A DNA stretch of 32,000 bases from Bdellovibrionales bacterium (GCA_963692945.1 OY843585.1:540001-572000), one strand, 5' to 3'. Shown: positions 2,538-28,842, counted from the first letter of the stretch. Program-made: numbers and translations. Notes: a model not told the origin generated them from the sequence alone.

Positions 2538-2540
2538 TAA

Positions 2541-3575: not shown

Positions 3576-3634
3576 TAACAAGTTTAAGAGAAATCTAATT
3601 GACCTTAATTTAGTTATATTATAGGGCTAAGTCT

Positions 3635-5128
3635 ATGGATCAGAAACCTAAACTGGATGATTATGCATTTAATATGTCTCAAAATGAGGGTGCACCATCT
3701 TCTTGGTGTGTTTTGCCTTGGTCTCATATTAATATTAAAGAGAAAGGGGAGTTTAGAATTTGTTGTCATAGTAACTCCAGTAAGAATAAAGGTCTTTTAA
3801 GAAATAAAGAAGGGATGCCTTTTCATATAAGTAAGGATAAATGGGATGCTATTTTCAATAGTGAGATGATGAAAAGAGTACGTAAAAATATGCTTCAAGG
3901 AAAATGGAGTGAAGAATGTAGGAGATGTAAAATTGAATATGAAAGTGATATGAGATCTAGAAACATTTGTGAGCGTAGTCACTTGGCCCATAGACTTAAG
4001 AGTTCAGAGTATCCAAATTATATAAAAGCTAAAAAGTTAACAAAAAAAGATGGTTCAATATTACTTAAAGATTTTTCTATATCTTATTTAGATATACGTT
4101 TTGGAAATCATTGCAATTTAAAATGTATGATGTGTGGTCCATCAGCTAGTAATAAATGGTATCAAGAGTATAAGGATATTTGGAAAGATGATTTTTTTTG
4201 GGACGGAGATCAAAAAATAGATTTTATAAAAGGCTTTAATGGGAAACTAAAGGTAAATAAGCATATTTACGATTGGAGTGATGATTCTCATTTATGGTTA
4301 GAAATTGAAAAATATTTAAATCAAGCTAAAGTCATTTATCTGGCTGGAGGAGAGCCTTTACTTATTAAAGCTCATTATGATTTTCTAAAAAAATGTATAA
4401 CTAAAAAGATCGCTTCTGAGGTATCGATAAACTACAACAGTAATATTACTCATATACCAGATAAAGTTTTAGTTTTATGGAAGCATTTTAAATCTATTTG
4501 TGTGGGTATGAGTATAGATGGTGTTGGTGAAATTAATGAATTGATTAGATATCCAAGTGATTGGAAAGAAATAGAGAATAATATTTTACGGCTTGATCAA
4601 ATTGGTGGAAACCTTTTATTAAGTATAACTTCCACAATAAGTGTTTTAAATATTTGGCATTTACCAAAATTTCTTAATTATATTATGAAAAAAAATTATA
4701 AAACAATAAACAACTGGAATGATAAATTATTATTAAACCCTCACCCTCTTCATCAGCCACCGTATTTAAATTTAAATATTCTAGAAGATTCTTTTAAGGA
4801 AAAAATTGTTAAATATTTTAAAAATTGTAAGGAAGAGGTGAGGGAGTTTGACTGGGAAATTTCCAACAAGGATAACAAAATAAAAAGATACTGTGAGATA
4901 CTAGATCAGTATATAAATTATATGTATCAAGTTAAGTATGAAGAAAAGGTTTTAAGAAGTCATAGGGGTCAATTTATTTATTTTATGGATAAATTAGATC
5001 GTTTGAGAGGAACAAATTGGTCTAAAGTGTTACCAGAACTTTATGAGTCTACATTAGAGTGGAGAGATATCCTTAAATTAAAATCTTTTGATAAAAAGTT
5101 TATTTATAAATCAGTTAAAATAAATTAA
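3635..5128 (+). CDS. Radical SAM enzyme with an N-terminal twitch/SPASM-like cysteine domain (copy 2, paralog of 1044..2537)
   Basis: Length is the same (497 aa), with about 29 substitutions versus copy 1 by manual alignment. The CNLKCMMC motif is identical. The upstream 36 bp and the downstream TAATAAATGAAAAATTT are also duplicated at an offset of 2,591 bp. Confidence 0.85.
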   Translation: MDQKPKLDDYAFNMSQNEGAPSSWCVLPWSHINIKEKGEFRICCHSNSSKNKGLLRNKEGMPFHISKDKWDAIFNSEMMKRVRKNMLQGKWSEECRRCKIEYESDMRSRNICERSHLAHRLKSSEYPNYIKAKKLTKKDGSILLKDFSISYLDIRFGNHCNLKCMMCGPSASNKWYQEYKDIWKDDFFWDGDQKIDFIKGFNGKLKVNKHIYDWSDDSHLWLEIEKYLNQAKVIYLAGGEPLLIKAHYDFLKKCITKKIASEVSINYNSNITHIPDKVLVLWKHFKSICVGMSIDGVGEINELIRYPSDWKEIENNILRLDQIGGNLLLSITSTISVLNIWHLPKFLNYIMKKNYKTINNWNDKLLLNPHPLHQPPYLNLNILEDSFKEKIVKYFKNCKEEVREFDWEISNKDNKIKRYCEILDQYINYMYQVKYEEKVLRSHRGQFIYFMDKLDRLRGTNWSKVLPELYESTLEWRDILKLKSFDKKFIYKSVKIN

Positions 5129-5131
5129 TAA

Positions 5132-6565
5132 ATGAAAAATTTAAAAAATCTCTTTAAACTTCATGTTTTGACAAAAGATTTGAGAGTGCCTTTTGATTTA
5201 AATATAGCACGTTCTCTTTTTTATTTTTTAGTTTTACAAAAAGTTTTAGAGCAAATTGATAGGTTTACAAATATAACCTATTCTTATCAGTCTTTTCTTA
5301 AAGTTTTTTGGACTCCAAGTTATTTATTTCAATTTTATCCTAGAGATTTATTATTATCTTGGGGAGAGATATATTTTATTTACTTACTTTTTTGCATTTC
5401 ACTTTTTTTCTGTATGATAGGTCTATATACAAGGTTTTTTAGTATCATTACTGCTATATTAGCACTTTTTTGTTTTGGATATATGCAACAGTTTGGAAAA
5501 ATTGACACAGAATTTACATTGCCTATTATTATTCTATTTGTTCTAGCATTTTTTTCTCAAATGAGTTCATCTTATTCATTACAAAATTTTTTAAAATTTA
5601 AGAATAAAAAAAAATTAATCAAAAGTTACGATTTATTTTGGAATCAGGTGACATTAAAATTCATATCAATCTTGCTTTTGCTTTTTTATTTTATAAGTGG
5701 TGTTCAAAAAATAAGATTTTCTGGTTTTGAATGGATTACAAAGGCTGAAATATTAAATGAAGCTCTTGTATGGCTTGGGCATCCTTATGGAGAGTATCTT
5801 GCACAGTTTCCTTCATGTGTGAAAATTCTTGCTTTTTTTGTTATACTTATTCAAATTTTATCTTTTATACCTATTATATTACCTCGTTTAATTCCTTATT
5901 GGGCCATTTTACTGGTTATTAGTTTTCATTTATTTTTGGATATGTTTATATCACAACATTATTTTTATCTTTATATTTACACATTTGTATTTTTAGTTCC
6001 ATGGTCAAGGCTCTTCTATATCTTATCTAGAGGAGAAATTAATATAGGTGGTTTATTAGAAAATTACTCTTTAATTTTTCTTTTTAAGAAAACTATCTTC
6101 AAACAAAGAATCCTTCTTTTAAAATTAATTGGAATAATAACTATTTTAGGATTTTTTATAGTAGCTCCAATTTTAGGAACTAAAAAATTATATCCTTTTC
6201 CAAAAATATCTATGTATTCTTATCCATTAGAAAGAGACAATCATGAGAATATAATAAAATTTTTTATATTTAAAAAAAATAAAAAAAGTAAGGATATTAT
6301 ATCTCATAATGAATTATGGCCTATCAGAAGAGATGTATTTATTTCTTATATAAAAAAACTTTACAAACAAAAAGAATATGAAAAAATTAAAATTATTATT
6401 AATAGGTTAAAAGAAAATCAGCCTTTCTTAATGAGATCAGATCTTAGCACTTTTAAGAATTATGATGAAATACTTATAGAGGCCTGTTATTGGAAAAATC
6501 TTGATATTTATTTTAAGAAAAAAAATCCAACAAATTGTGAAATTCTATTAAAAATAAAATTGTAA
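5132..6565 (+). CDS. Polytopic membrane protein, possibly HTTM (vitamin-K gamma-carboxylase-like) domain
   Basis: The 477-aa protein has many hydrophobic segments in its first ~340 aa. The N-terminal DLNIARSLFYFLVL resembles the D..sLA.FRi motif that opens HTTM domains. The C-terminal ~130 aa is a soluble Lys-rich domain. The family call is tentative. Confidence 0.6.
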   Translation: MKNLKNLFKLHVLTKDLRVPFDLNIARSLFYFLVLQKVLEQIDRFTNITYSYQSFLKVFWTPSYLFQFYPRDLLLSWGEIYFIYLLFCISLFFCMIGLYTRFFSIITAILALFCFGYMQQFGKIDTEFTLPIIILFVLAFFSQMSSSYSLQNFLKFKNKKKLIKSYDLFWNQVTLKFISILLLLFYFISGVQKIRFSGFEWITKAEILNEALVWLGHPYGEYLAQFPSCVKILAFFVILIQILSFIPIILPRLIPYWAILLVISFHLFLDMFISQHYFYLYIYTFVFLVPWSRLFYILSRGEINIGGLLENYSLIFLFKKTIFKQRILLLKLIGIITILGFFIVAPILGTKKLYPFPKISMYSYPLERDNHENIIKFFIFKKNKKSKDIISHNELWPIRRDVFISYIKKLYKQKEYEKIKIIINRLKENQPFLMRSDLSTFKNYDEILIEACYWKNLDIYFKKKNPTNCEILLKIKL

Positions 6566-14764: not shown

Positions 14765-14840
14765 GCGGGAGTAGCTCAATTGGTAGAGTATCAGCCTTCC
14801 AAGCTGAGGGTTGCGGGTTCGAAGCCCGTCTCCCGCTCCA
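14765..14840 (+). tRNA. tRNA-Gly (anticodon UCC)
   Basis: A cloverleaf folds by hand: acceptor GCGGGAG/CTCCCGC, D arm GCTC-AATTGGTA-GAGT, anticodon arm TCAGC-CTTCCAA-GCTGA, T arm GCGGG-TTCGAAG-CCCGT, discriminator T, encoded CCA. Confidence 0.95.
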
Positions 14841-15378: not shown

Positions 15379-16005
15379 TTATTTTGTGCCATCATGTTTA
15401 TGTTGAAGATCTTTTCTTTGATCTATAGACCATACATCTAATCGACCTCCACCTAAATCTGCACAAGCTAAAGCGGTGTATTGTTTGTATTTACCACTTG
15501 TTAGTTTAACTTTTGCTTTCAAGCTTCCAGTGATACAAGCTCCACTTAAGTTTTTAACAGCTGTGTTTTTAGTAGAATTATTAGATTCTTTTAAAAAACA
15601 TTCAGTACTACTTCCTGAAGCAAAATCTTTACCACAAACTTCAAAGGTGTTGGAATTGCCTGTACCATTAGCAGTTCCTCCTATTGCACAATCTGGAATC
15701 CCAGATGTAGGACAACTCGTTCCTCCATCAATAGGGCTTTTGTCAAAACCTACATTGTAAATGTATTTTCCTACGAGGTCTAAATTGATGGCCTCTAAAT
15801 TATAATGATAGTTATTGTTATCTATATAAAAAATTCTCTCATTGCCATACAAATTGGAGAGCAATATTTTGGCTTCTGTTGTTTTTCCTTGTCTTTTTGT
15901 TTTCATAAAACTGATAACAGCCATAGAAGAAAGAATGGCTATGATACTTACCACAGTAAGTAGTTCAATGAGAGAGAAACCTTTGGACTTGTTGATAGAA
16001 TACAT
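15379..16005 (-). CDS. Type IV pilin (PilA/PilE-like), prepilin-type N-terminus
   Basis: MYSINKSKG|FSLIELLTVVSIIAILSSMAV shows a class III signal, with Gly-1, Phe+1 and Glu+5, followed by the hydrophobic alpha1-N helix. The C-terminal half contains several Cys. Confidence 0.85.
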   Translation of the reverse strand: MYSINKSKGFSLIELLTVVSIIAILSSMAVISFMKTKRQGKTTEAKILLSNLYGNERIFYIDNNNYHYNLEAINLDLVGKYIYNVGFDKSPIDGGTSCPTSGIPDCAIGGTANGTGNSNTFEVCGKDFASGSSTECFLKESNNSTKNTAVKNLSGACITGSLKAKVKLTSGKYKQYTALACADLGGGRLDVWSIDQRKDLQHKHDGTK

Positions 16006-16103
16006 CTTATCTTTTTATAGCATTATTTTGTTATGTTTTATCTATTTATTTTTTTATACTCAACATCCGTCCTAATTTTTTGTTAGTGATTGATAGCTAG
16101 GTT

Positions 16104-17474
16104 TTATAATTTTTGTTTTCCTTTCATTCTTTGAAAGAGTTTCTTTATAAAACCTTGTTTTTCAGAGTTAGATTTAATGTGAGCAGTCTCGGCATTGACA
16201 ACAAGACTCTTCTTTGTTGCTTTAGGTTTAGAAATCACTTTCACTCTATTTTCAGGAATAGGAGTGAACCACATATCAATAACATGTCCTTTTTGTTCAA
16301 CTCCCTTCTTGTTCACAAAAATAAAATTAGACTTTTCAATCTCTTTTGCTCTTTTACCATATTCCACCTGAGAACTTTCATAATCTAAAGAGATTTGTTT
16401 GATTTTTTGATTTAAAGGAATTTGTTCGGTTTTTTCTCCCACTCCGTTTCTATTGACATCTTTCCATAAAACCAGTTGAGAAAAAACTTTATCTTTAGCA
16501 TTGATTTGATTGTCTTTATTAGAGTCAAAATCTTTTAAAGATTCAAATCCATTTTCGTAAACAGTGTCTAAGCCTGTATTTCCAAATAACTCATAAGCCT
16601 CTGTTATTTTTCCATCTTTATTTTGATCTAAAGCTATAAAATAACCAGGGGAGTCTTTCTCCGGCCATGTGACATAGCGATTGTTTTCCATAAGAGGAAA
16701 AGTACTTAACCCTGTAAAGAGAGGTCTTTGTTGATTAAAGAAAACCATTAGAGGAGAGGTGTAGTATCTACAACCCGAAGCACTGCTTGTTGTTTTTATA
16801 GGAATGGATAAACCGATGGTAACGCTACCTGCTCTGGAAGTAAGGTCATCAAGGTTAGGGGAGTAAGATACACCTAGATGTCCTTTTTTACCCCAAGTCG
16901 TCCAAAGACTCAAAGCCGATACTGCATCACCTCTTCGTTGCCTAACTTCTACAGACCTAGTTTTATCTCTTCGTTCTATACGGGCACTTGGAACAAACTG
17001 TACAGTTATATGGTTTCTATCTCCAGAAGCTCGGTAATTTCCAGTCGCTAATACACTAGCCGTTGCTCTGTAATTGTCAGTCCAAGCTGCAGAAGCGATT
17101 TCATAAACTTTAGTTGCACGACTGTCACTAATAGTCTTGCTTATTCTTGAATGAACAAGTGCAGAAGGGAATTCAAAAACAATATATTTTTTATTATCGG
17201 CAGAATCAACAACTGGCATTCCAATAACAATATGAGTTGATCTATCAAGATTAAGAGGTGATCCTCCCCATCTTGAGTTTGTAGATATACATATAGCGGA
17301 GATACTTGTTGTTACTTTATGGTCTATAAAAACCTTTTTATCTTCTGGTGGTTCAGGAATATCAGCAGTGCTTGCTACACCTCCCCAATCTCCTCCTGTG
17401 CTTGTCTGGATGCTCACTGCAGAAAAAGCGTTTATTGAAGTAACACTCAAAAATAAAATAATAATTTTTTTCAT
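16104..17474 (-). CDS. Secreted protein with C-terminal EF-hand-like calcium-binding DxNxDG loops (candidate PilY1-like or adhesin accessory)
   Basis: A signal peptide (MKKIIILFLSVTSINAFSA) and an AGGAG RBS are present. DQNKDGKITEAYELFGN, DFDSNKDNQINAKDKVF and DVNRNGVGEKTE match DxDxDG-type Ca loops. The gene sits between pilin genes. Confidence 0.7.
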   Translation of the reverse strand: MKKIIILFLSVTSINAFSAVSIQTSTGGDWGGVASTADIPEPPEDKKVFIDHKVTTSISAICISTNSRWGGSPLNLDRSTHIVIGMPVVDSADNKKYIVFEFPSALVHSRISKTISDSRATKVYEIASAAWTDNYRATASVLATGNYRASGDRNHITVQFVPSARIERRDKTRSVEVRQRRGDAVSALSLWTTWGKKGHLGVSYSPNLDDLTSRAGSVTIGLSIPIKTTSSASGCRYYTSPLMVFFNQQRPLFTGLSTFPLMENNRYVTWPEKDSPGYFIALDQNKDGKITEAYELFGNTGLDTVYENGFESLKDFDSNKDNQINAKDKVFSQLVLWKDVNRNGVGEKTEQIPLNQKIKQISLDYESSQVEYGKRAKEIEKSNFIFVNKKGVEQKGHVIDMWFTPIPENRVKVISKPKATKKSLVVNAETAHIKSNSEKQGFIKKLFQRMKGKQKL

Positions 17475-17586
17475 TATAAGCTCCTTTATTAATTTCTATT
17501 TATCAAGTTTAATTCTATAGTATTTTTTTGTTTTTTAAAAATTATTTGAACTTTTTATCTTAAAACTGTCTCAAGATGATACACAA

Positions 17587-17642
17587 CAAAACTCTAGTTC
17601 AATATAATAAGAAAAGGGTATTAGAAATGAACTAGAGTTTTG
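17587..17642. repeat. Minimal 56-bp member of the repeat family (locus D)
   Basis: A perfect 14-bp inverted repeat CAAAACTCTAGTTC / GAACTAGAGTTTTG flanks a 28-nt centre. That centre (..AAGAAAAGGGTATTAGAAATG) is the reverse complement of 14859-14879. It abuts the stop codon of 17643..18614. Confidence 0.8.
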
Positions 17643-18614
17643 TTAAGGGAGGAACTCAAAAGAGATTTTGATTTGAGTGTTGGTCACATCGGTTCTTTTA
17701 AATTTCATATGTTTCATATTATTTGCAAATAAAAAGCCATTGCTTTGATCGCAATTTAAAGATGTATTTTTATCTTTTACTATGCAGTGGTAAATGTCAT
17801 TATCTTTCATGGAATAGATAGAGATATGAATAATTCCAGCAAGAACCACATCCTGACCTCCAATAAGATGAGAGTTCAAAACAAAATCTTTTATGTTTCC
17901 ATAACTGGTTCCTCCAACGGCAGGGTTTAAAAAATTAAAATGAGACCCCATTCTGGTGTATTTTGTTACTGAAGGAGTATCGCTATGATGTCTTACTTTA
18001 GGGCAACTTGAAGTGTGATTCTTTGTTCCCATATAACCTAGAAAAGCAGGTTTTCTTGGAAAATCATTCATATTTAAAGGACGAGCGTTTCTTAAAAAAG
18101 CAGGAATATATAAAAGCACAAGTCCATTGTTTTTCCATAAATAGTTTAGTTCTTGTCTTAAATAACAATCATTAAAATAAGCATCATTCGGAGTTACGGT
18201 ATTGATGAGGTCATCATAGTAATAATTAAAAAATTCCATAATATTGACACGTTTTACATTTTTAATGGATAGAAATAAAAACTTCTTGTTATTTTCTAAA
18301 GTAAAAATTCTATTTTTATGGGTTAAGCTGAAGGAGTGATAATCTGGTAATACATCAAAAAAGTTTTTATTATTATCATCTTTAACATTTAAAATGCCAT
18401 AAGAGACGGCTATATTTTCAAGAGAGGTGTATAAAAATTTATTCAACCATTCTTCAGTGATTTTTTTATCCGCTTTTTTCTCAATATTCTTACCTTCTTT
18501 TGTTACCAATTGTAAAATGGATACAGAACCTAAAGTTACAAAAGCGAACATAGCAGCTGCAACTATAAGTTCTACAATAGAAAAACCTTTATTTTTTTGT
18601 ATAGATAATTTCAT
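17643..18614 (-). CDS. Minor (pseudo)pilin, PilW/PilV-like, prepilin-type N-terminus
   Basis: MKLSIQKNKG|FSIVELIVAAAMFAFVTLG has Gly-1, Phe+1 and Glu+5. The protein is 323 aa and lies in the pilin operon. Confidence 0.75.
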   Translation of the reverse strand: MKLSIQKNKGFSIVELIVAAAMFAFVTLGSVSILQLVTKEGKNIEKKADKKITEEWLNKFLYTSLENIAVSYGILNVKDDNNKNFFDVLPDYHSFSLTHKNRIFTLENNKKFLFLSIKNVKRVNIMEFFNYYYDDLINTVTPNDAYFNDCYLRQELNYLWKNNGLVLLYIPAFLRNARPLNMNDFPRKPAFLGYMGTKNHTSSCPKVRHHSDTPSVTKYTRMGSHFNFLNPAVGGTSYGNIKDFVLNSHLIGGQDVVLAGIIHISIYSMKDNDIYHCIVKDKNTSLNCDQSNGFLFANNMKHMKFKRTDVTNTQIKISFEFLP

Positions 18615-18634
18615 TTTTTAAATCCCACCTGTTT

Positions 18635-19147
18635 TTAATTTAAAGGAAGAAGCATTTTTAAATCCAAGAAAGCTTTATAAGAGTAAGAGTTTGGAGTACT
18701 TCCTGTTTGTCTTTCAATGCCTACAATCCAAATTTTAAAAAGACCTCGTGTATTTGAAAGAGGTATGAGTGACAGCCCTATGCGACTTTCACAATGAGGG
18801 CAGTCCTCTGCTTTTATAATATCTCCCTTAGAATCTATGGCAAAAGCCAAAACATCAAAAACAGCTGGATTGGCTGATATATGGGATTGCTCTGTATTTG
18901 CAATACCTGCAAAACCACTTTTTCCAGGAGGATAAAATTGATAATTGTTAGAATGAGATAGAAGAGATTGCACAATATAAGCTGCACTTTTAGAAGCTAA
19001 AGAAGCATCGGAAACATCTTCTATTTGTTTTGTGACTCCTGATAGAAAACTGATAAGAGCTGTAAAAATAGTTAAAACAATAGCAGAGCTGATTAAGATT
19101 TCTACTATACCTACACCTTTGTTATTTTTTAGAAATTGAACAAACAT
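18635..19147 (-). CDS. Minor (pseudo)pilin, prepilin-type N-terminus
   Basis: MFVQFLKNNKG|VGIVEILISSAIVLTIF has Glu+5. The ATG at 19147 overlaps the TGA of the giant upstream gene by 1 nt. The track start at 19150 is a TTG one codon earlier. Confidence 0.75.
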   Translation of the reverse strand: MFVQFLKNNKGVGIVEILISSAIVLTIFTALISFLSGVTKQIEDVSDASLASKSAAYIVQSLLSHSNNYQFYPPGKSGFAGIANTEQSHISANPAVFDVLAFAIDSKGDIIKAEDCPHCESRIGLSLIPLSNTRGLFKIWIVGIERQTGSTPNSYSYKAFLDLKMLLPLN

Positions 19148-22100
19148 CAATTTAGAGTTCCTTTCTTTAAAATAGGCCGACTTATAAATTTTCTTATATA
19201 AAATTTACAACTTACTCTTCTACTATTTTCATCTATGTGAGCACAATCTGGATCTACCGAAGTCCAAGTGAAAGGGTCTGCTTCTTTCATTAAACCAACA
19301 GGATTACAACTAAGAGAGGTTGCTCGGTTTTCAGGGTGAATGGGATTGCCAAGAAAGTTTTTATTATTATTACAATCTGATTTTGAAAGTGTTGTGTCTG
19401 TTCCGACTACATATTCATCACCTTTTGTTAAAATTTTCTGATCTCTTAATTCATAAAGAGCTTGAGCTTGCCAAATACTACCCCAAGTGACTCCATGTTG
19501 AAGGGCGGTTTTATGCACATTCAGTTGAGAGCTTATAACTGTCCCTATGATACGAAGAGGAGTGGTTCTTTGTTCTATAGTGAATTTATCACAAACAAAG
19601 AAACCCGTCACAAAATCAGCCGTGCTTTTAACTATGCAATGACCAAAGAGAGCCTTATTTTGAAATCTAAAATTTACACCAGAGCGAGTTGCATTTTTAT
19701 CATCAAGTATGAAAAGGCTTTTGTCAGTCCCTCTGTCTGTAAAATCCCAAGAGCTTCTAGTGAAAGGACTTAAATCAAAAAACCAATCTAAGCTGCCTAT
19801 AAAATTTTCTGGATCTTCAGTAGGGCAATGTTCGGATGTTATAAGTAAAGGAGTTGTTGAACGGTTGAGATCACTCGGGTCTTTAGCGAGCTGTCCTTTA
19901 TTATTCTGTCCCCAGCAGTAGAGTTTAGCTTTATTATCAGTGGGTAGGACTTGAATGGCACAGGTGTGGGAATATCCAGTTGAGACCTGTTTAATGTTTT
20001 GGTTTTGAAAAGCATTTGTTGTTTCCGTTCCATTTTTAACGAGTTTGGGTTTTTTGCGAGGACTTGTAGTGGTGCCATCTCCGATCTGTCCATAGAAATT
20101 ATGTCCCCAGCAGTAAAGTTTGCCTGCTTGAATGGCACAGGTGTGGAATCTTCCAGTTGAGACTGATGTGACATTTTGATTTTGAAAAGCACCTGAAACG
20201 GATGAAACGAGTTTGGGTTTTTTGCGATTATTTGTGTTGCCAGTGGTGCCATCTCCGATCTGTCCTTGGTTATTCCGTCCCCAGCAGTAAAGTTTTCCAG
20301 CTTGAATGGCACAGGTGTGGAAATCTCCAGTTGAGACTGATGTGACATTTTGATTTTGAAAAGCACCTGAAACGGATGAAACGAGTTTGGGTTTTTTGCG
20401 ATTATTTATGCTGTCATAGGTACCATCTCCGATCTGTCCATAGAGATTATCTCCCCAGCAATAAAGTTTTTGGTTTTGGATGGCACAAGTGTGGTCAAGT
20501 CCAGTTGAGACCGATTGGACGTTTTGGTTTTGAAAAGGATTGGTTGTTTCCGTTCCATTTAAAATGAGTGTGGGGCTTGCGCGACGATCTGTAGTGCCAT
20601 CTCCGATCTGTCCATGGTTATTCTGTCCCCAGCAGTAAAGTTTTTGGTTTTGAATGGCACAGGTGTGGGAACCTCCAGTTGAGACCTGTTTAATGTTTTG
20701 GTTTTGAAAACCACTTGAACGGGATCGCAAGAAGTAGGGTCTTAGTGTTGGGATAGGAGTTAAGCGGCCATCTCCGATCTGTCCATGGTTATTCTGTCCC
20801 CAGCAGTAAAGTTTTTGGTTTTGAATGGCACAGGTGTGGGAACCTCCAGTTGAGACCTGTGTTATGTTTTTTTCTGGAAAAAAGTTTTTTTCTACATTTA
20901 ATAAATGTACATCATCTGTGTTACCAATTCCTAATTGCCCTGAAGCATTATATCCCCAACATATATTTTTAGATACACTATTACCATCATCATCATATGC
21001 AATGCTAAAACAAGTATGATTTGCTCCTGTATCAAAAACATAAGTGGAACTTGGAAATGTAACTTTCACAGCTTTCTTTTTATTATCTGTGGTGCCATCT
21101 CCGAGTTGTCCCGAGCCATTCCGTCCCCAGCAGTAAAGTTTTTGGTTTTGAATGGCACAGGTGTGGTGATATCCAGTTGAGACTGATGTGACATTTTGAT
21201 TTTGAAAAGCACCTGAAACGGATAAAACGAGTTTGGGTTTGTTGCGATTATTTGTGTTGCCAGTGGTGCCATCTCCGAGTTGTCCGTAGTTATTCCGTCC
21301 CCAGCAGTAAAGTTTTTGGTTTTGGATGGCACAGGTGTGGTTACCTCCAGTTGAGACCGAATCCATTTGGATATTTTGGTTTTGAAAAGCATTTGTTGTT
21401 TCCGTGCCATCTGCAACGAGTTTGGGTTTGTTGCGATTATTTGTGTTGCCAGTGGTGCCATCTCCGAGTTGTCCGTAGTTATTCCGTCCCCAGCAGTAAA
21501 GTTTTTGGTTTTGAATGGCACAGGTGTGGTGATATCCAGTTGAGACTGATGTGACATTTTGATTTTGAAAAGCATTTGTTGTTTCCGTGTCATTTGCAAC
21601 GAGGGTGGGTGTGCGATGATTAAATGTGTAGCCAGTGGTGCCATCTCCGAGTTGTCCATAGGTATTATCTCCCCAGCAGTAAAGTCTTCCAGCTTGAATG
21701 GCACAGGTGTTGTTAACTCCAGTTGAGACTTTTGTTACGTTTTGGTTTTGAAAAGCATTTGTTGTTTCCGTGCCATCTGCAACGAGTTTGGGTTTTGTGT
21801 GTTGATTTACTGTGTTGCCATCTCCGAGTCTTCCATAGTTATTTTTTCCCCAGCAGTAAAGTCTTCCAGCTTGAATGGCACAGGTGTAGTCACTTCCAGC
21901 TGAGACTTTTGTTACGTTTTGGTTTTCAAAAGCATTGGTTCCTCCTGTTGTGCCATCTGCAACAAGTGTGGGTTTGTTGCGATAATTTGTGCTGCCATAG
22001 GTACCATCTCCGATCTGTCCATATTCATTACGTCCCCAGCAGTAAAGTCTTCCAGCTTGAATGGCACAGGTGTGTACACTTCCATTTGAGACTTTTGTTA

Positions 22101-23631
22101 CATTTTGGTTTTGAAAAGCTTTTGTTGTTTCCGTGCCATCTGCAACGAGTTTGGGTTTTGTGCGCCTCTCTCTGGTGCCATCTCCGATCTGTCCATAGCC
22201 ATTATATCCCCAACAGTAAAGTTTTTGGTTTTGGATGGCACAGGTGTGGCTTTGTTCACCTGAGACAGAAGTCACGGTGGCTGAAGAAGAATTCACACTG
22301 TAATCTAAAATTTCTGGAGTATGTAGGCACTCCTCAAGAGTGTCATTTCTTGATTCACAAGCTTCTTGACCTGAGAAAACCTCTAAACCTTTATCCGTTT
22401 TTTCAAGCACAACCCCTTTGTAAAATCCACCCATATTCAAATGGTTATAATCCATCAAGTATCCAGCTTTACTAGGTGTGAAATCTTGATTTTGCCCGTA
22501 AAGAAATTCTCCTTTTCCTAAAAACAATTTATCAAAAAAGTAGATGGGCGTAAAACTGGGGGTTGTTCCAGAAGCATACTTTTTAAAGTGTAGATTTCCA
22601 TTTACAAACACAGGGCTTTGAAAGGTCAAACCTTTGTAGGAAGATTTTTGAGCTTCTGTTATTTTTTCAAACTTGGTAGAAGTGCTAGGGGGAGAGACAC
22701 ATTTATCATCGGGTTGAATAGTTTGACGAGCGGGGGGGGGTAGACTAGAAGTGGTATCATAAAAATACATATCCCTAGCCAATACAAGAGAAAAAGTGTT
22801 CATCTCCCTTGGAAATAAAGAAACATCCCATTCTGCTGTATAGTTTTTGGTTATGCTTTTTTCTGTAAAGTTGGTTTCAATTTTAACTTTTATATATTTT
22901 TCACTTCCACGAACTTGATAAGTTTGTGCTTCATTACTGATAGTGATTTTTAAAGTATTCATTTTAATTTTCATAGTGTTGGAAGAGGTGTAAGATTGAA
23001 AATAATCACTTAAGGCAAATTTAGTTTTATCTTTTAAGTCTGAGCTGCTAAAAACTTTATAAAAAGAATTAAGTTTAATGGTATTCAAATTTGTAGGGAG
23101 GTTGATACATTTATCACAATCAGATCTTTTTTGTTTGAGGCAAGTTTTTTGTGCTGCTGTGCAAATATCTGAAGGGTTATCTTGTCTTAATTTTTCAAGT
23201 TTAGCTAACTCAATGTCTCCAAAAAGAACTCTTTCTGAACTCATTGGATCGGTTAATTTATCACATTGAGATTGATAACCCCATTTATCATTAAAACACC
23301 ATTTTCTCTCAACACCAAAAAGAGTGTATTTAATAACAGATTGTATGGATTCTTTAAAAAGAATGAAGTTATCGGTTTCTACTTGTTGTGATTTGTATTG
23401 TAAGACATAGTGACCAACAAATAAAATCATAGGAAGGGTTGTTATTGAAATAACAATAGGCAAGAAAATAGACCCTGTTTTGCTAAATAACCTATTGAAC
23501 TTTATGAGTTTATTGAACTTTATGAAACGACTCCTATGTTTAACCAACATAAATTGCTTTTTGACTTTTAAAAGGGATGTATTCAAATGACCATAGAACG
23601 ATTTAGTAATAGTTTCCTTTTTTTTAATCAC
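19147..23631 (-). CDS. Giant membrane-anchored protein with 14 RCC1-type beta-propeller blades, first gene of the pilin operon
   Basis: The 1,494-aa ORF has an N-terminal hydrophobic helix (GSIFLPIVISITTLPMILFVGHYVL) like PilX-type N-termini. There are 14 repeats of S.G..HTCAIQ..KLYCWG.N.YGQ(I/L)GDGT, the RCC1 blade signature, enough for two 7-bladed propellers. The start is uncertain: GTG at 23631 or ATG at 23550. Confidence 0.88.
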   Translation of the reverse strand: MIKKKETITKSFYGHLNTSLLKVKKQFMLVKHRSRFIKFNKLIKFNRLFSKTGSIFLPIVISITTLPMILFVGHYVLQYKSQQVETDNFILFKESIQSVIKYTLFGVERKWCFNDKWGYQSQCDKLTDPMSSERVLFGDIELAKLEKLRQDNPSDICTAAQKTCLKQKRSDCDKCINLPTNLNTIKLNSFYKVFSSSDLKDKTKFALSDYFQSYTSSNTMKIKMNTLKITISNEAQTYQVRGSEKYIKVKIETNFTEKSITKNYTAEWDVSLFPREMNTFSLVLARDMYFYDTTSSLPPPARQTIQPDDKCVSPPSTSTKFEKITEAQKSSYKGLTFQSPVFVNGNLHFKKYASGTTPSFTPIYFFDKLFLGKGEFLYGQNQDFTPSKAGYLMDYNHLNMGGFYKGVVLEKTDKGLEVFSGQEACESRNDTLEECLHTPEILDYSVNSSSATVTSVSGEQSHTCAIQNQKLYCWGYNGYGQIGDGTRERRTKPKLVADGTETTKAFQNQNVTKVSNGSVHTCAIQAGRLYCWGRNEYGQIGDGTYGSTNYRNKPTLVADGTTGGTNAFENQNVTKVSAGSDYTCAIQAGRLYCWGKNNYGRLGDGNTVNQHTKPKLVADGTETTNAFQNQNVTKVSTGVNNTCAIQAGRLYCWGDNTYGQLGDGTTGYTFNHRTPTLVANDTETTNAFQNQNVTSVSTGYHHTCAIQNQKLYCWGRNNYGQLGDGTTGNTNNRNKPKLVADGTETTNAFQNQNIQMDSVSTGGNHTCAIQNQKLYCWGRNNYGQLGDGTTGNTNNRNKPKLVLSVSGAFQNQNVTSVSTGYHHTCAIQNQKLYCWGRNGSGQLGDGTTDNKKKAVKVTFPSSTYVFDTGANHTCFSIAYDDDGNSVSKNICWGYNASGQLGIGNTDDVHLLNVEKNFFPEKNITQVSTGGSHTCAIQNQKLYCWGQNNHGQIGDGRLTPIPTLRPYFLRSRSSGFQNQNIKQVSTGGSHTCAIQNQKLYCWGQNNHGQIGDGTTDRRASPTLILNGTETTNPFQNQNVQSVSTGLDHTCAIQNQKLYCWGDNLYGQIGDGTYDSINNRKKPKLVSSVSGAFQNQNVTSVSTGDFHTCAIQAGKLYCWGRNNQGQIGDGTTGNTNNRKKPKLVSSVSGAFQNQNVTSVSTGRFHTCAIQAGKLYCWGHNFYGQIGDGTTTSPRKKPKLVKNGTETTNAFQNQNIKQVSTGYSHTCAIQVLPTDNKAKLYCWGQNNKGQLAKDPSDLNRSTTPLLITSEHCPTEDPENFIGSLDWFFDLSPFTRSSWDFTDRGTDKSLFILDDKNATRSGVNFRFQNKALFGHCIVKSTADFVTGFFVCDKFTIEQRTTPLRIIGTVISSQLNVHKTALQHGVTWGSIWQAQALYELRDQKILTKGDEYVVGTDTTLSKSDCNNNKNFLGNPIHPENRATSLSCNPVGLMKEADPFTWTSVDPDCAHIDENSRRVSCKFYIRKFISRPILKKGTLN
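19875..22290 (-). repeat. Intragenic tandem coding repeats (RCC1 blades), several nearly identical at nucleotide level
   Basis: Stretches longer than 100 nt recur, for example GAGACTGATGTGACATTTTGATTTTGAAAAGCACCTGAAACGGAT.AAACGAGTTTGGGTTT starting near 20159, 20333 and 21178. Confidence 0.85.
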
Positions 23632-23782: not shown

Positions 23783-23841
<59 letters not shown>

Positions 23842-23857
<16 letters not shown>

Positions 23858-24058
23858 TTTAAAAATAGGCTGGAAGAAAATACTTCCTAATTTTTTTGTA
23901 GAGATTTTTCCTCTCTCACCGTGGGCACCATTTAAAAATAGGCTGGAAGAAAATACTTCCTAATTTTTTTGTAGAGATTTTTCCTCTCTCACCGTGGGCA
24001 CCATTTTAAAATAGGATGGAAGAAAATACTTCCTAACTGTTTTGTAGAGATTTTTCCT
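23842..24058 (+). repeat. Three tandem copies of a 73-bp unit that begins with the last 16 nt of tRNA-Thr
   Basis: Units start at 23842, 23915 and 23988. Units 1 and 2 are identical and unit 3 has a few substitutions. Each unit is CTCACCGTGGGCACCA + TTTAAAAATAGGCTGGAAGAAAATACTTCCTAATTTTTTTGTAGAGATTTTTCCT(CT), containing a small GGAAG/CTTCC hairpin plus a T-run. A solo GTAGAGATTTTTCCT recurs at 24739-24753. Confidence 0.9.
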
Positions 24059-24672
24059 AAAATTTCATATTCATCACATTCTTTTTCTGTTTTTGCCTCT
24101 GCTTCGTATTCTGTTTTTGCCTCTGCTTCGTATTCTTCTTCATATTCTGCTTCTGCTTCTGTTTCTGCTTCGTATTCTTCTTCATATTCTGCTTCTGTTT
24201 CTGCTTCGTATTCTGTTTTTGTTTCTGCTTCGTATTCTTCTTCATATTCTGCTTCTGTTTCTGCTTCTGCTTCTGCTTTATATGCTATTTCTATTTCTGT
24301 TATGCAGTCATCTAATTCATAATATGTATCATCTGAGACTCTGAACTCCGCTTCATTCCAGAGATCATCTAAAGAATAAGCCGAAACAATGCATGTTGAT
24401 TCAAAGTATCCTCCATCATATTGGTGTGAATAGCTATAATCTATGGAACATTCTCCCTCTTCAAAGGAGCAATGAAAAACATGGAAGTCAAAAGTAAAAT
24501 CTCCTTCACACCATATATCATAACAAAGATTGTTTAAGTCTATTAATAAAACTTCCTCCTCATGACTGGTTAGGTCGTTCCCACTGGAATAAGCTTTAGG
24601 AATTCCTCCCATCCATTGCAATAAAAAGATGCAAATAGCGAGGGGAAAGATTTTTTTTATTATTTTTTTCAT
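23989..24672 (-). CDS. Secreted Cys-rich protein with an acidic E/A/T/Y tandem-repeat C-terminal extension (paralog 1)
   Basis: The start is placed at the ATG at 24672 (MKKIIKKIFPLAICIFLLQW..., AGGAGG RBS), identical to paralog 2. The track ORF start at 24756 adds 28 aa with no RBS. The core motif is WCEG...FHCSFEEGECSIDYSY. The last ~20 codons are antisense to repeat unit 3, including the tRNA fragment. Confidence 0.7.
   Translation of the reverse strand: MKKIIKKIFPLAICIFLLQWMGGIPKAYSSGNDLTSHEEEVLLIDLNNLCYDIWCEGDFTFDFHVFHCSFEEGECSIDYSYSHQYDGGYFESTCIVSAYSLDDLWNEAEFRVSDDTYYELDDCITEIEIAYKAEAEAETEAEYEEEYEAETKTEYEAETEAEYEEEYEAETEAEAEYEEEYEAEAKTEYEAEAKTEKECDEYEILGKISTKQLGSIFFHPILKWCPR
24085..24280 (-). 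repeat. Intragenic tandem repeat encoding (EAETEAEYEEEY)n-like acidic tract
   Basis: GCTTCGTATTCTGTTTTTGCCTCT and GCTTCGTATTCTTCTTCATATTCTGCTTCTG motifs are reiterated. The other frames yield the spurious ORFs 24057..24245 and 24093..24344. Confidence 0.85.
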
Positions 24673-24771
24673 TAGAACCTCCTTTATGGTTTTGTGTTTA
24701 AAATTCGGAAAAAATCTCATGACTTTTGTTAAAGCAAAGTAGAGATTTTTCCTCAAACTTAATATTTATCT

Positions 24772-25164
24772 TCAATACAGTTCTTCATCTTCTATACAAT
24801 CAGATACTTCATAATACAGATCCTTTGATATTTCGGAATCCACTTCATTCCAGAGATCATCTAAAGAATAAGCCGAAACGATACATGTTGATTTAAAATC
24901 TTCTTCACCATATCGGTATCCATAGCTATAATCTATGGAACATTCTCCTTCTTCAAAGGAGCAATGAAAAGCATGGAAGTTAAATTTAAGAGCTCCTTCA
25001 CACCATACATCCAAACAACGATTGTGTAAGTCTATTAATAAAACTTCCTCTTCATAATTGGTTAGGTCGTTTCCGCTGGAATAAGCTTTAGGAATTCCTC
25101 CCATCCATTGCAATAAAAAGATGCAAATAGCGAGGGGAAAGATTTTTTTTATTATTTTTTTCAT
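24772..25164 (-). CDS. Secreted Cys-rich protein (paralog 2, short form)
   Basis: The 130-aa protein has the same signal peptide and Cys-rich core as 23989..24672. The identical 66-bp upstream region, including the AGGAGG RBS, is duplicated at a 492-bp offset. Confidence 0.75.
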   Translation of the reverse strand: MKKIIKKIFPLAICIFLLQWMGGIPKAYSSGNDLTNYEEEVLLIDLHNRCLDVWCEGALKFNFHAFHCSFEEGECSIDYSYGYRYGEEDFKSTCIVSAYSLDDLWNEVDSEISKDLYYEVSDCIEDEELY

Positions 25165-25662: not shown

Positions 25663-26847
25663 ATGTCTAAAGAAACTTTTAAACGTGATAAAGAGCATGT
25701 GAATATTGGAACAATAGGGCATGTTGATCATGGTAAAACAACTCTAACAGCGGCTATAACTTCTGTTTTAGCAAAAGCGGGTGGTGCAACGGCTATGAAA
25801 TACGACCAAATTGATAAAGCACCAGAAGAAAAAGCTCGTGGAATTACTATTTCTACGGCTCATGTTGAATATGAAACGGAAAAGCGTCATTATGCTCATG
25901 TGGATTGTCCAGGTCATGCTGATTATGTAAAAAATATGATTACAGGTGCGGCTCAAATGGATGGTGCTATTCTTGTGGTTTCTGCTACGGATGGGCCTAT
26001 GCCTCAAACAAGAGAACATATTTTATTGGCTCGTCAAGTTGGTGTTCCTGCTATAGTGGTATTTTTGAATAAGTGTGACCAAGTTGATGATAAAGAACTT
26101 CTTGATCTTGTTGAGTTAGAAGTTCGTGAGCTTTTAACAGAATATAAATTTCCAGGAAATGATATTCCTATTGTTAAAGGTTCGGCTTTAAAAGCTCTTG
26201 AAGGTGATGCTGATAGTGAAAAAACAATTTTGGATCTTATGGCTAAAGTTGATGAGTACATTCCTTGTCCAAAAAGAGATATAGAAAAATCTTTTCTTAT
26301 GCCTGTTGAGGATGTGTTTTCTATTTCAGGTCGTGGAACGGTCGTTACGGGTCGTGTGGAAAGAGGTGTTGTTAAAGTTGGTGGTGAAGTTGAAGTTGTG
26401 GGTATTCGTGAAACTAAAAAAACAACGGTTACAGGTGTTGAAATGTTTCGTAAATTACTTGATAGAGGTCAAGCTGGTGACAATGTTGGTCTTCTTCTTC
26501 GTGGTATTGAAAAAGATGATGTTGAAAGGGGTCAGGTTATTTCTGCTCCAGGAACCATCACTCCTCATAAAAAATTTAAATGTGAATGTTATATATTAAA
26601 GAAAGAGGAAGGTGGAAGACACACTCCTTTTTTTAAAGGCTACAGACCTCAGTTTTATTTTAGAACAACAGATGTAACGGGTTCTGTTCAACTTCCTAAA
26701 AATGCAGAGATGGTTAGCCCTGGTGACGATGTTCATTTAGAGGTAGAACTCATTTGTCCTATTGCTATGGAAAAGGGAGTTCGTTTTGCCGTTCGTGAAG
26801 GTGGTAGAACAGTAGGAGCTGGTATTGTTTCTGAAATTATGGAGTGA
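25663..26847 (+). CDS. tuf: Translation elongation factor Tu
   Basis: The 394-aa sequence is unmistakably EF-Tu: [10 protein letters not shown] (G1), DCPGH (G3), NKCD (G4), [30 protein letters not shown]. Confidence 0.99.
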
Positions 26848-27152: not shown

Positions 27153-27228
27153 AGGGCAGTAGCTCTAATGGTAGAGCGTCGGATTCCAAATCCGTAGGTT
27201 GTGGGTTCGAGTCCTACCTGCCCTGCCA
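27153..27228 (+). tRNA. tRNA-Trp (anticodon CCA)
   Basis: A cloverleaf folds by hand: acceptor AGGGCAG/CTGCCCT, D arm GCTC-TAATGGTA-GAGC, anticodon arm TCGGA-TTCCAAA-TCCGT, T arm GTGGG-TTCGAGT-CCTAC, discriminator G, encoded CCA. Confidence 0.95.
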
Positions 27229-27555: not shown

Positions 27556-28842
27556 TTAAGCTGCTTTCTGTTTAGCTTGGTTGATTTTGTCTATAAATCC
27601 GACTTCCTGCAATTCAATAGAATAGCCGTCTTGAGTTATTGTGTTAGAAAAATTAACCACAGATTGAGGAAATTCTTTTGCTATTAAAACCCCTATATTT
27701 TTCCTTTGTGCAACCATAACCCCTAAAAGTTCTCTAATATGCTTAACTTGTCCTTTGGATTTTTTAACTTGCATTATTGCTCCGTCTTTAATTCTAATTC
27801 CGTCAATGCCCCCGTCATTTGATTGGTATGGATTTGGTGTTCCCTCAGCTTTTAAAATACATTCAGTTTGAAATTCTTTATCATTTAATTTATAGATATC
27901 TTTTGGTATTTTATTAAAAGATTTAAAATCTCTTTTGCTTTTTCTAATTCCAAGTTTCAATAACTTTTTTTGAATAGAGGCTATAGCATCTTCCTGTGCA
28001 TCACATCCAATAAAATATCTTCCTTCTTTATGGCAAGCTTCTATAGTTGAACCACATCCACAGAAAAAATCAGCAACTTTATCATTTTTATTTGTAAATG
28101 CTTTGATTAGAGTTTGTATTAAAGGAGCAGGTTTTTCAGTAGGATAAAGTTTTTCAGTTGTAGCCACATCAGGATGATTAAAAACATCTCTAGCATTAAC
28201 TAAGTTATATGTCCTTCCATACCTATCTTTTTGGTACTGAACTTTTCCACCATGTCCACCACCACTTTTTGTATAAGACCTTTCTTTATCTGGTGGATTC
28301 CAAATATAATCTTCTGTTTTTCTATAAACTAAAATTGTTTGATGTGACCCTGCAAATTTCTTTCCACCATTCTTTGCTTTCTTATACCAAATTATTTCAT
28401 TTAAAAAATGCTTCTTATGACCTCTATCTCTATCTCCATAACCAAAGATTTCATCTAAAATACATTTAACATAATGAACGGCATTATGATCTAAATGCAC
28501 ACATAAAATACCTTTATCATCTAAAAGCCTATGACAGTGATTTAGTCTTGGTTTAATATACTCAAGATATCCTTGTATGCCTGTTCCATAACTATCATGG
28601 TAACCAACCACTTTTTTAGCCCAATTCTTTCCATCTGTTTTTATATCAAACTTACTTGCACTTGGTTTATTTATTGTTTGTTTTCTTCTAGTATTAAATG
28701 GAGGGTCAATGTATATAAGTCTAAACTCTTTATCTTTTCTTAAAGACATAAACTTAAGGTTTTCAGCTTTCCAAACTTCAATTTTATCTGCCATAAAAAA
28801 TAAGTCGGATTGATTAAGCTGCACTCTTGAGTCCTTTTTCAA
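27556..28842 (-). CDS. Beta-class N6-adenine/N4-cytosine DNA methyltransferase fused to a C-terminal Mrr-like (PD-(D/E)xK) restriction endonuclease domain
   Basis: Motif IV IYIDPPFN comes before motif I VADFFCGCGSTIEACHKEGRYFIGCD, which is the beta-class order. The C-terminal ~110 aa has NDGGIDGIRIKDGAIMQVKKSKGQV...IGVLIA, matching the DgGiDg...vQvK core of Mrr_cat nucleases. The track start is TTG at 28842; an ATG at 28794 is an alternative. Confidence 0.8.
   Translation of the reverse strand: MKKDSRVQLNQSDLFFMADKIEVWKAENLKFMSLRKDKEFRLIYIDPPFNTRRKQTINKPSASKFDIKTDGKNWAKKVVGYHDSYGTGIQGYLEYIKPRLNHCHRLLDDKGILCVHLDHNAVHYVKCILDEIFGYGDRDRGHKKHFLNEIIWYKKAKNGGKKFAGSHQTILVYRKTEDYIWNPPDKERSYTKSGGGHGGKVQYQKDRYGRTYNLVNARDVFNHPDVATTEKLYPTEKPAPLIQTLIKAFTNKNDKVADFFCGCGSTIEACHKEGRYFIGCDAQEDAIASIQKKLLKLGIRKSKRDFKSFNKIPKDIYKLNDKEFQTECILKAEGTPNPYQSNDGGIDGIRIKDGAIMQVKKSKGQVKHIRELLGVMVAQRKNIGVLIAKEFPQSVVNFSNTITQDGYSIELQEVGFIDKINQAKQKAA

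Follow-up and report, generated by a model that had tools for sequence, protein, structure and literature searches.

PilX2 of Nanosynbacter lyticus TM7x (Saccharibacteria) is a minor pilin of the PilX-like type whose signal peptide is non-canonical and which carries an RCC1 propeller of seven blades; it was proposed to be a tip adhesin, and its deletion halves host binding (PMC11623550). ComZ of Thermus thermophilus (6qvi) is a tip-associated competence pilin with a beta-solenoid inserted in the pilin fold (PMC6561018), and cyanobacterial PilX was described as a Glu5-less pilin fold that is interrupted by a beta-solenoid resembling ice-binding proteins and was proposed as a substitute for the PilY1 plug (bioRxiv 10.64898/2026.02.12.705559). 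In Myxococcus xanthus, the 'Tips' of the Kil Tad-pilus (KilL/M/N) are encoded in four paralogous three-gene clusters, which are interchangeable and differ in their prey preferences (PMC12075869). The self-processing module (SPM), described as exclusive to a subset of RTX proteins, relies on a mechanism in which the Asp414 carboxylate attacks its own carbonyl (PMC7078468). According to a statement cited in PMC6060248, type IV pili are required for prey entry by Bdellovibrio. Here, a five-gene operon was analyzed at positions 15379-23631 of a 32,000-nucleotide stretch from a Bdellovibrionales bacterium (GCA_963692945.1, OY843585.1:540001-572000); this whole stretch is called the window, and positions are counted from its first nucleotide. 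We consider it fairly probable that these genes encode a Bdellovibrionota-typical version of the tip complex that primes and caps a type IV filament. The five genes are listed below, with open reading frames abbreviated as ORFs and with an arrow placed after the conserved Gly of each prepilin motif.

19147-23631, minus strand: large tip-type subunit gene, 1,494 aa from GTG
18635-19147 (ORF 18635-19150), minus strand: small prepilin gene (ORF2), 170 aa from ATG, 'NNKG↓VGIVE', PilV/GspI-sized
17643-18614, minus strand: mid-sized prepilin gene (ORF3), 323 aa, 'KNKG↓FSIVE', PilW/GspJ-sized
16104-17474, minus strand: SPM-like accessory protein gene (ORF4), 456 aa, Sec-secreted
15379-16005, minus strand: type IVa-like pilin gene (ORF5), 208 aa, 'KSKG↓FSLIE'

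The coordinates confirmed five co-directional, tightly linked minus-strand genes with a 1-nt overlap, as put forward in the original prediction. The overlap lies between the large gene and ORF2 and reads TGATG, the ATG at 19147 sharing its A with the TGA stop; this start of ORF2 is supported by orthologs, which likewise begin with 'MF..'. The remaining intergenic gaps are 20, 168, and 98 nt, and the sole minus-strand terminator-like site within the operon (18410-18396) is located inside ORF3, with none between genes. The GTG start of the large gene is less likely, since the called start of the ortholog P0001 falls, in the alignment, on the ATG at aa 28 (nt 23550); the true start is probably this ATG, giving a protein of ~1,467 aa. 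The genes form a co-directional (pseudo)pilin operon, and the E-values and conserved synteny reported below mean that its gene content cannot be due to chance.

ORF2, ORF3, and ORF5 share the motif K-G↓(F/V)-x-(I/L)-(V/I)-E. ORF5 scored 29.9 bits with N_methyl (PF07963, cut-off 21.2) and 29.1 with TIGR02532 (cut-off 16.3), ORF3 scored 20.5 bits with N_methyl, just under the cut-off, and the prepilin hidden Markov model (HMM) score of ORF2, 13 bits, was not significant. Judged from sequence, ORF5 is a type IV prepilin in full, and ORF2 and ORF3 are so by motif only. Gly-1, Glu+5, and a Cys pair of ORF2 are invariant in five orthologs, and Gly-1 and Glu+5 of ORF3 are invariant in six. The two prepilin-type minor pilins and the PilA/PilE-like pilin that had been predicted are thus upheld, the former by this conservation and the latter by the two profile scores. 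The N-terminus of ORF5 matches Myxococcus PilA (NF041775, 2.4e-10), and its best match in the PDB is M. xanthus PilA (8tj2), over alpha1 only; when the ORF3 profile was compared with the PDB, pilin N-termini were the only matches. Faint NCBIfam matches were obtained to XpsI/GspI/ComGE for ORF2, GspJ/ComGE/ComGF for ORF3, and GspH/GspG for ORF5, the Gsp-type matches being far below the curated cut-offs and confined to the N-terminal helix. A Pfam scan of the five proteins gave no match to TadE.

The large subunit combines a pilin-like N-terminus, two conserved family domains, and an RCC1 array between them. The N-domain was delimited using an exhaustive profile search, two family alignments, and an AlphaFold2 (AF2) model.

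23308-23475, minus strand: pilin-like N-terminus, Gly at aa 53 in 'NKTG↓SIFLP', without Glu at +5, then a predicted 53-residue alpha-helix
22297-23550, minus strand: conserved family N-domain (aa 28-445), comprising a helix, a beta-sheet, and the start of a solenoid-like scaffold, with the motif 'SPVFVNGN'
19783-22284, minus strand: 14 RCC1 blades (aa ~450-1283), variable display module
19150-19782, minus strand: conserved family C-domain (aa ~1284-1494), 'FVTGFFVCD..PLRIIGT' and 'ADPFTWTSVDPDC'

The Gly is invariant in 43/43 family N-termini, where it is mostly preceded by R/K and followed by S/N and then a hydrophobic run, and position +5 is occupied by Q, L, P, M, V, T, I, or Y and never by Glu. 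The family's resemblance to PilX_N is limited to the pattern (K/R)-G-(S/N)-x-L-L and the hydrophobic helix after it. In these residues, the large subunit shows the pattern of the PilX/GspK/ComZ capping pilins, that is, a Gly-1 and an N-terminus without Glu5. For structure prediction, the N- and C-domains were joined into a chimera with the RCC1 array removed. The AF2 model from the single sequence was uninformative (predicted local distance difference test [pLDDT] 31), and the model from a 70-sequence multiple sequence alignment reached an overall pLDDT of 75 with a predicted template modeling (TM) score, pTM, of 0.76. In the latter, residues 29-81 form an N-terminal helix (pLDDT 78-91 over most of it) whose 53 residues correspond to the length of pilin alpha1; beyond it are beta-sheets, runs of short solenoid-like strands, and long hairpins, and the beta-hairpins of the C-domain are predicted with high confidence (pLDDT 85-98). 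Foldseek comparison of the chimera model with the PDB gave three ComZ chains (6qvi) as the top three matches and an ice-binding beta-solenoid as the next. The ComZ match is weak (E 1.7e-3, TM <0.2), with no sequence similarity, and a PDB profile search with the large-protein family yielded, apart from a faint match to a pilin N-terminus, only noise from coiled coils in the variable middle. The agreement of the ComZ and ice-binding-solenoid matches with the published description of cyanobacterial PilX is suggestive, and the fold assignment of the modeled scaffold is tentative.

RCC1 membership was assigned using PF00415, PF13540, and PF25390, based on blades of ~50-60 aa above the gathering score. 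Pfam RCC1 matched the large protein in 14 stretches (E 1.6e-140, 458 bits, cut-off 21.7) and WD40_RLD in three (E 2.8e-148, 494.5 bits, cut-off 150), and the list of blades agrees with the 14 counted originally, the fourteen '[YI]CWG' blades lying at aa 472-1238 with a period of ~58 aa. At the DNA level, the region is a tandem array of 174-nt units with 71-81% matches. The 14 blades probably fold as two 7-bladed propellers. When the window protein without its RCC1 array was aligned with 69 RCC1-less homologs, their extra ~300 residues all fell at the junction of the array, so that the array is an exchangeable insert at a fixed point of a conserved scaffold. This ~300-aa variable middle of the homologs matched coiled coils alone in PDB profile searches. 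RCC1 repeats, ~5 to ~20 in each protein, occur in 7/150 family representatives, and six of the seven group as one clade in a neighbour-joining tree built from the conserved domains. On this distribution, the RCC1 array is specific to one lineage, inserted in a larger, mostly RCC1-less family typical of Bdellovibrio, and it is not the core of the system.

Two further features of the array were observed. The motif 'FQNQNVT(S/K)VS(T)G' is found in nearly every blade (19783-22284) and brings an N-x-T sequon with it, and several blades are almost identical as protein. The near-identity and the sequon suggest recent intragenic amplification of the blades and possibly their glycosylation.

Relatives of the large protein were collected by several searches. 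A word-indexed search with the non-RCC1 N-domain gave one relative only, at 50% identity, whose low-coverage contig (L001) carries RCC1 repeats and the same C-terminal domain. The exhaustive profile search gave 164 cluster representatives at E<=1e-3, and the C-domain is present in 129 of 150 family representatives, the median length of those being 924 aa. Searching with a 60-sequence family alignment returned proteins annotated as 'hypothetical protein' from Bdellovibrio bacteriovorus, many Bdellovibrio spp., and Pseudobdellovibrionaceae; hardly any of these large-protein homologs has a Pfam domain, and some genomes carry more than one copy. Genome and metagenome contig scans with the N-domain gave no matches, and a genome scan with the mid-sized pilin gave one Bdellovibrio locus only, at 24% identity. 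The neighborhoods of ORF4 or large-protein homologs were inspected at eight places besides the window. L001, the closest relative, ends before the downstream genes and is uninformative on what follows; the other places are listed below, with protein lengths in the order large, small, mid-sized, and SPM protein.

L003, NCBI assembly: large (cut at contig end), 207, 332, SPM 490, and PilA-like 216 aa
L004, Bdellovibrio sp. HCB-162, copy 1: 995, 148, 333, and SPM 413 aa
L006, Bdellovibrio sp. HCB-162, copy 2: 931, 164, 322, and SPM 385 aa
L005, B. bacteriovorus (CP102930, with czcD-like and ahpC/ABC1 genes on either side): 986, 154, 340, and SPM 413 aa
JGI/NCBI contig carrying P0182: 1223, 155, 330, and SPM 444 aa
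L008, JGI contig: 861, 148, 349, and SPM 417 aa; PilA gene 4.3 kb upstream
L002, 1.19-Mb ENA contig: RCC1 large 1209, no small gene, 340, SPM 487, and 79-aa pilin remnant

The order large, small, mid-sized, SPM is found in seven contexts (the window, L003, L004, L005, L006, L008, and the P0182 contig). L002 lacks, of the four cassette genes, the small gene alone, and the cassette is thus intact in seven of eight contexts. A PilA-like gene adjoins the cassette or lies near it in the window, L003, L002 (as a remnant), and L008. The synteny check that had been proposed was positive: the large gene is linked to prepilin genes in all eight contexts, at 21-28% identity and with start/stop overlaps. 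Because the flanking genes vary between places, what is conserved is the cassette unit itself. As far as these searches go, it is a cassette of Bdellovibrio and relatives, often present in several copies per genome and annotated only as hypothetical. No description of this cassette, or of a minor-pilin/PilY1 set for the type IVa pili of Bdellovibrio, was found in the searchable literature, which is incomplete. In L002 (11556-11795, 8775-8778), the cassette shows erosion: all that is left of the PilA-like gene is the 79-aa remnant, and the RCC1 large gene, the mid-sized pilin, and the SPM protein are intact.

ORF4 has a Sec-type N-terminal signal peptide, three EF-hand-like loops, and no RTX repeats. 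Its N-terminal domain, of unassigned fold, is followed by an SPM-like Ca-binding domain.

16275-16763, minus strand: SPM-like domain (aa ~238-400), 'TSPLMVFF', EF-hand-like loops DQNKDGKITEAYE, DSNKDNQINAKD, and DVNRNGVGEKTE

A phmmer search of PDB sequences matched ORF4 to the SPM of Neisseria FrpC (6sjx/6sjw; FrpC 415-591) at E 1.6e-9, a profile of 16 ORF4-family members matched the same entries at E 8e-22, and PF26745 SPM is annotated on 22/22 ORF4 homologs. The secreted protein with EF-hand-like Ca loops of the original prediction keeps its Sec signal and three loops and is more exactly a homolog of the FrpC SPM without the scissile Asp. Set against the published structure (PMC7078468), ORF4 retains all three EF-hand-like loops and the two stacking Trp (the W451/W519 pair) and has no fourth Ca site (D419/D421/D423); in the comparison of the ORF4 family, HMMER leaves the first ~40 SPM residues unaligned. 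Of the 17 members with a locatable motif, 16 have Ser-Pro and one has Glu-Pro where the scissile Asp-Pro would be, and no 'DP' dipeptide is found in ORF4. Pro240 is invariant, and the beta1-like 'PLMVFF' strand is conserved in the family. Since the required Asp is Ser, the anhydride 'clip-and-link' is not expected in ORF4, and canonical clip-and-link activity was rejected for it. Ca-dependent folding is probably retained, and ORF4 is probably a non-cleaving Ca switch in the position of PilY1. The parallel with PilY1 is one of position and predicted Ca binding, not of homology: as stated originally, no PilY1-type protein is present, with no match to PilY1/Neisseria_PilC (PF05567) at E<=1 in any of the five proteins, and the Ca loops lie in the SPM-like domain and not in a propeller, so ORF4 was rejected as a PilY1 homolog. 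An SPM protein of ~400-490 aa is encoded after the pilin genes in every cassette. In the SPM-protein family (P0017-P0035), a near-invariant Cys stands five residues before the Ser-Pro, in 'C-G-G-[YF]-x-S-P-L-M-V-F-F-[DN]-[DE]-x-R-P-x-F'. The Glu-Pro of the L002 protein is preceded by a Gly/Asp/Pro-rich low-complexity stretch.

Compared by published description, the large protein is like TM7x PilX2 in being minor-pilin-like with a non-PilD-type signal, in being encoded with other minor pilins, and in carrying an RCC1 propeller. RCC1 as a pilus-tip component, which had been thought to be without precedent, was thus already published (PMC11623550). Unlike PilX2, which has one C-terminal 7-bladed propeller, the protein described here carries 14 blades inserted between the N- and C-domains of a solenoid-type scaffold, has an SPM-like partner, and comes from another phylum (its relatives are Bdellovibrionota, apparently diderm). 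ComZ, the top Foldseek match, and cyanobacterial PilX are large Glu5-less tip minor pilins, as is proposed for the large protein; their pilin fold is interrupted by a solenoid, and they are found in organisms without PilY1. The family described here also has an insert that can be exchanged (coiled coil or RCC1) and an SPM-like partner that is obligatory. As in the fimU-pilVWXY1E and GspH-I-J-K sets, small, mid-sized, and large (Glu5-less) subunits are encoded in one operon together with a Sec-secreted, predicted Ca-binding non-pilin and an extra pilin. The layout was originally said to mirror fimU-pilVWXY1E; however, the gene order differs, being large, small, mid-sized, accessory, and pilin here, and that claim was dropped. 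None of the cassette subunits reaches the FimU/PilV/PilW/PilX or Gsp family cut-offs. Unlike in PilY1 sets, there is no PF05567 protein, the propeller is of the RCC1 type and sits on the pilin-like subunit, and the Ca sites are in the SPM-like domain.

Several paralogous minor-pilin cassettes per predator genome and a large subunit with a variable distal domain are also features of the Kil Tips, which differ in being TadE/F/G-type components of a Tad system; the motifs here are of the G↓FxxxE (type IVa/type II secretion system [T2SS]) type, and a fourth, SPM gene is present. The predicted Kil-type tip of Bdellovibrio is Bd0114/0115/0148 (PMC12075869). The cassette was rejected as a candidate for this predicted Kil/Tad Tip, Bd0114/0115/0148 being other genes of another pilin class. 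With the SPM of FrpC/ApxIVA, ORF4 shares a homologous Ca-dependent folding domain, the three EF-hand-like loops, the W451/W519 pair, and a Pro at the start of the module. Unlike these proteins, it is not an RTX protein of a type I secretion system (T1SS) but a ~400-490-aa Sec-secreted protein encoded with pilins, with Ser in place of the scissile Asp and the fourth Ca site gone.

A tip complex built from these parts could work as follows. Once inserted by Sec/SRP, the three pilin-like proteins would be cleaved behind their conserved Gly by a prepilin peptidase. The small and mid-sized prepilins, ORF2 as a PilV/GspI-like partner and ORF3 as a PilW/GspJ-like one, would form with the Glu5-less large subunit a three-helix base that primes and caps the filament. 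We infer that the large protein would be incorporated as the terminal capping pilin, of the PilX/ComZ class, with its alpha1 helix docked into the filament. Its scaffold, at the apex, would hold the RCC1 propellers outward, where they would act distally as an adhesin or lectin that binds the surface of a host or of prey. The module spliced into the scaffold is variable: ~300 aa and coiled-coil-like in most Bdellovibrio paralogs and 14 RCC1 blades here. ORF5 would serve as an adapter (FimU/GspH-like) or as a fibre subunit. Once it meets Ca2+, either in the periplasm or extracellularly, the SPM-like protein would fold, and it would then bind or stabilize the tip, without Asp-anhydride chemistry. 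The filament is most likely a type IVa pilus. Both TM7x PilX2, on which host binding depends, and the interchangeable Kil Tips agree with this scheme.

Some results weigh against a tip complex. The large protein (at E<=1) and the 43 family N-termini are unmatched by Pfam PilX_N (PF14341) and N_methyl, and the leader ahead of the conserved Gly is long, at 26 aa from the ATG. Of the PilX-like anchor that had been predicted, a pilin-type N-terminus without Glu5 stands, in motif and in predicted structure; membership of the large-protein family in PilX_N was ruled out by the negative HMM result. The two-propeller reading is arithmetic from the 14 blades and the three WD40_RLD stretches. No genes for pilus or secretion machinery (pilB/C/D/M-Q, gsp) were found within the window or at any locus examined, so that any particular machine named for the cassette is putative. 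The unmatched pilin and PilX_N models, together with the long leader, the lack of Glu5, and the weak ComZ fold match, would also suit a large protein that is a signal-anchored envelope or surface protein and never enters a filament, the nearby pilins being separate or only co-regulated. We hold this to be rather unlikely, against it being the linkage to prepilin genes in every context across 21-28% identity with start/stop overlaps, the invariant Gly at the expected position of prepilin peptidase cleavage, and a predicted helix of pilin alpha1 length. GspK is the largest pseudopilin and lacks Glu5, and it is unlikely, if slightly more conceivable, that the cassette is instead the tip of a T2SS pseudopilus (GspK/I/J-like, with a GspH-like ORF5) used for secretion, perhaps of the SPM-like protein or other cargo. 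The faint matches of ORF2 to XpsI/GspI, ORF3 to GspJ, and ORF5 to GspH/GspG point in this direction, as does the lack of linkage between the cassette and pilus machinery; however, gsp genes are likewise unlinked, the Gsp-type matches remain under their cut-offs and within the N-terminal helix, and the best matches of ORF5 are type IVa major pilins (NF041775 and 8tj2). A periplasmic pseudopilus would have little room for a subunit of ~1,500 aa that bears two propellers, and multiple variable paralogous cassettes suit recognition more than secretion.

RCC1 proteins are known eukaryote-like effectors in Legionella. An RCC1 array that acts as a eukaryote-like mimic of a Ran guanine nucleotide exchange factor (as Legionella LegG1), an effector of a reduced-genome symbiont and not an adhesin, would suit the small (1.56-Mb contig), AT-rich source replicon and the one relative whose contig comes from a very large multi-contig assembly. 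It is nevertheless extremely improbable: the array lies within a membrane-anchored, Cys-rich extracytoplasmic scaffold, with one scaffold domain on either side, and is not a free secreted protein, and the precedent of TM7x PilX2 ties an RCC1 propeller to binding of the surface of a bacterial host. An SPM-like protein that is active, undergoing Ca2+-triggered self-processing at X-Ser-Pro and linking its N-terminal domain covalently to the tip or to a target surface, is very unlikely. The domain is a true homolog of the FrpC module (E 8e-22), it keeps the three Ca loops, both Trp, the invariant Pro240, and the conserved 'PLMVFF' strand, and it is always encoded with pilins, all of which could favor activity; against this, the published mechanism requires the Asp414 carboxylate (PMC7078468), where Ser (16/17) or Glu (1/17) is found here, the fourth Ca site is absent, and the first ~40 SPM residues are unaligned by HMMER. 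A tip complex of a type IV filament is therefore the reading that we prefer. A wider form of it is possible but doubtful: the four-gene unit may be an undescribed multi-copy tip system across Bdellovibrionota that sets host or prey recognition, in which the SPM-like protein takes the place of PilY1 as a tip factor triggered by Ca2+, perhaps with processing chemistry of its own, and the RCC1 double propeller is one of several plug-in modules.

The operon is located between tRNA-Gly(TCC) (14765-14840) and tRNA-Thr(GGT) (23783-23857, plus strand), upstream of tuf (25663-26847) and tRNA-Trp (27153-27228). The tRNA-Trp gene is followed by a DNA methylase with an Mrr-like nuclease domain (27556-28842) and then an AAA/KAP-type ATPase. 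Overall, the remainder of the window holds radical-SAM/SPASM genes, DciA, MlaDEF, tmRNA, tRNAs, tuf, the DNA methylase, and the AAA ATPase. No secE or nusG was seen in the window; the L002 cassette is ~7 kb upstream of secE-nusG-rplK. At 23841-24058, a 73-bp unit is repeated three times with 97% identity, each copy starting with the 3' end of tRNA-Thr(GGT), followed by a small hairpin and then a T-rich part. The repeats look like reiterated att-type copies of the tRNA 3' end or a terminator array, and they overlap the 3' end of the ORF at 23989-24756. Integration of the operon as an island at tRNA-Thr was considered and rejected, the repeats being on the side of the tRNA away from the operon and the cassettes of relatives being in other contexts. 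The ORFs at 23989-24756 and 24772-25164 (minus strand), between tRNA-Thr and tuf, encode adjacent paralogous small secreted proteins with a near-identical signal peptide and Cys-rich N-domain; the longer one has acidic 'EAEAETEAEYEEEY' repeats, and neither gave a Pfam match. At 1044-6565 (plus strand), two 497-aa radical-SAM/SPASM proteins, which fall in one cluster at 90% identity, are each followed by a Pfam-unmatched ORF (344 and 477 aa), and the pairs look like a duplicated peptide-maturase pair. The source contig is 1,561,448 bp with ~30% G+C, and the closest relatives of the cassette are on the 1.19-Mb ENA contig and in an NCBI assembly of >118,000 contigs. These figures hint at a reduced-genome, possibly host-associated lineage related to Bdellovibrionota, this affiliation being read from how the homologs are named; nothing useful was found in the literature on reduced-genome Bdellovibrionota symbionts.

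The prepilins, the RCC1 propeller on a PilX-like pilin, the solenoid-type capping pilins, and the SPM domain are known parts. What appears to be new is their combination in a conserved Bdellovibrionota cassette, with an insert point that holds 14 RCC1 blades and an obligatory Ser-Pro SPM-like partner. An SPM-type domain outside RTX toxins, next to pilins and with Ser for the catalytic Asp, widens the known uses of this domain, and the variant may interest protein engineers who use it for covalent ligation. The RCC1 variant indicates that one insertion point accepts very different display modules, which supports modular, exchangeable pilus tips, and suggests that two distant phyla took up RCC1 propellers at their pilus tips independently of each other. 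For Bdellovibrio and its relatives, the cassette is a concrete candidate for a tip complex, being conserved, multi-copy, annotated as 'hypothetical', and testable in the genetically tractable B. bacteriovorus.

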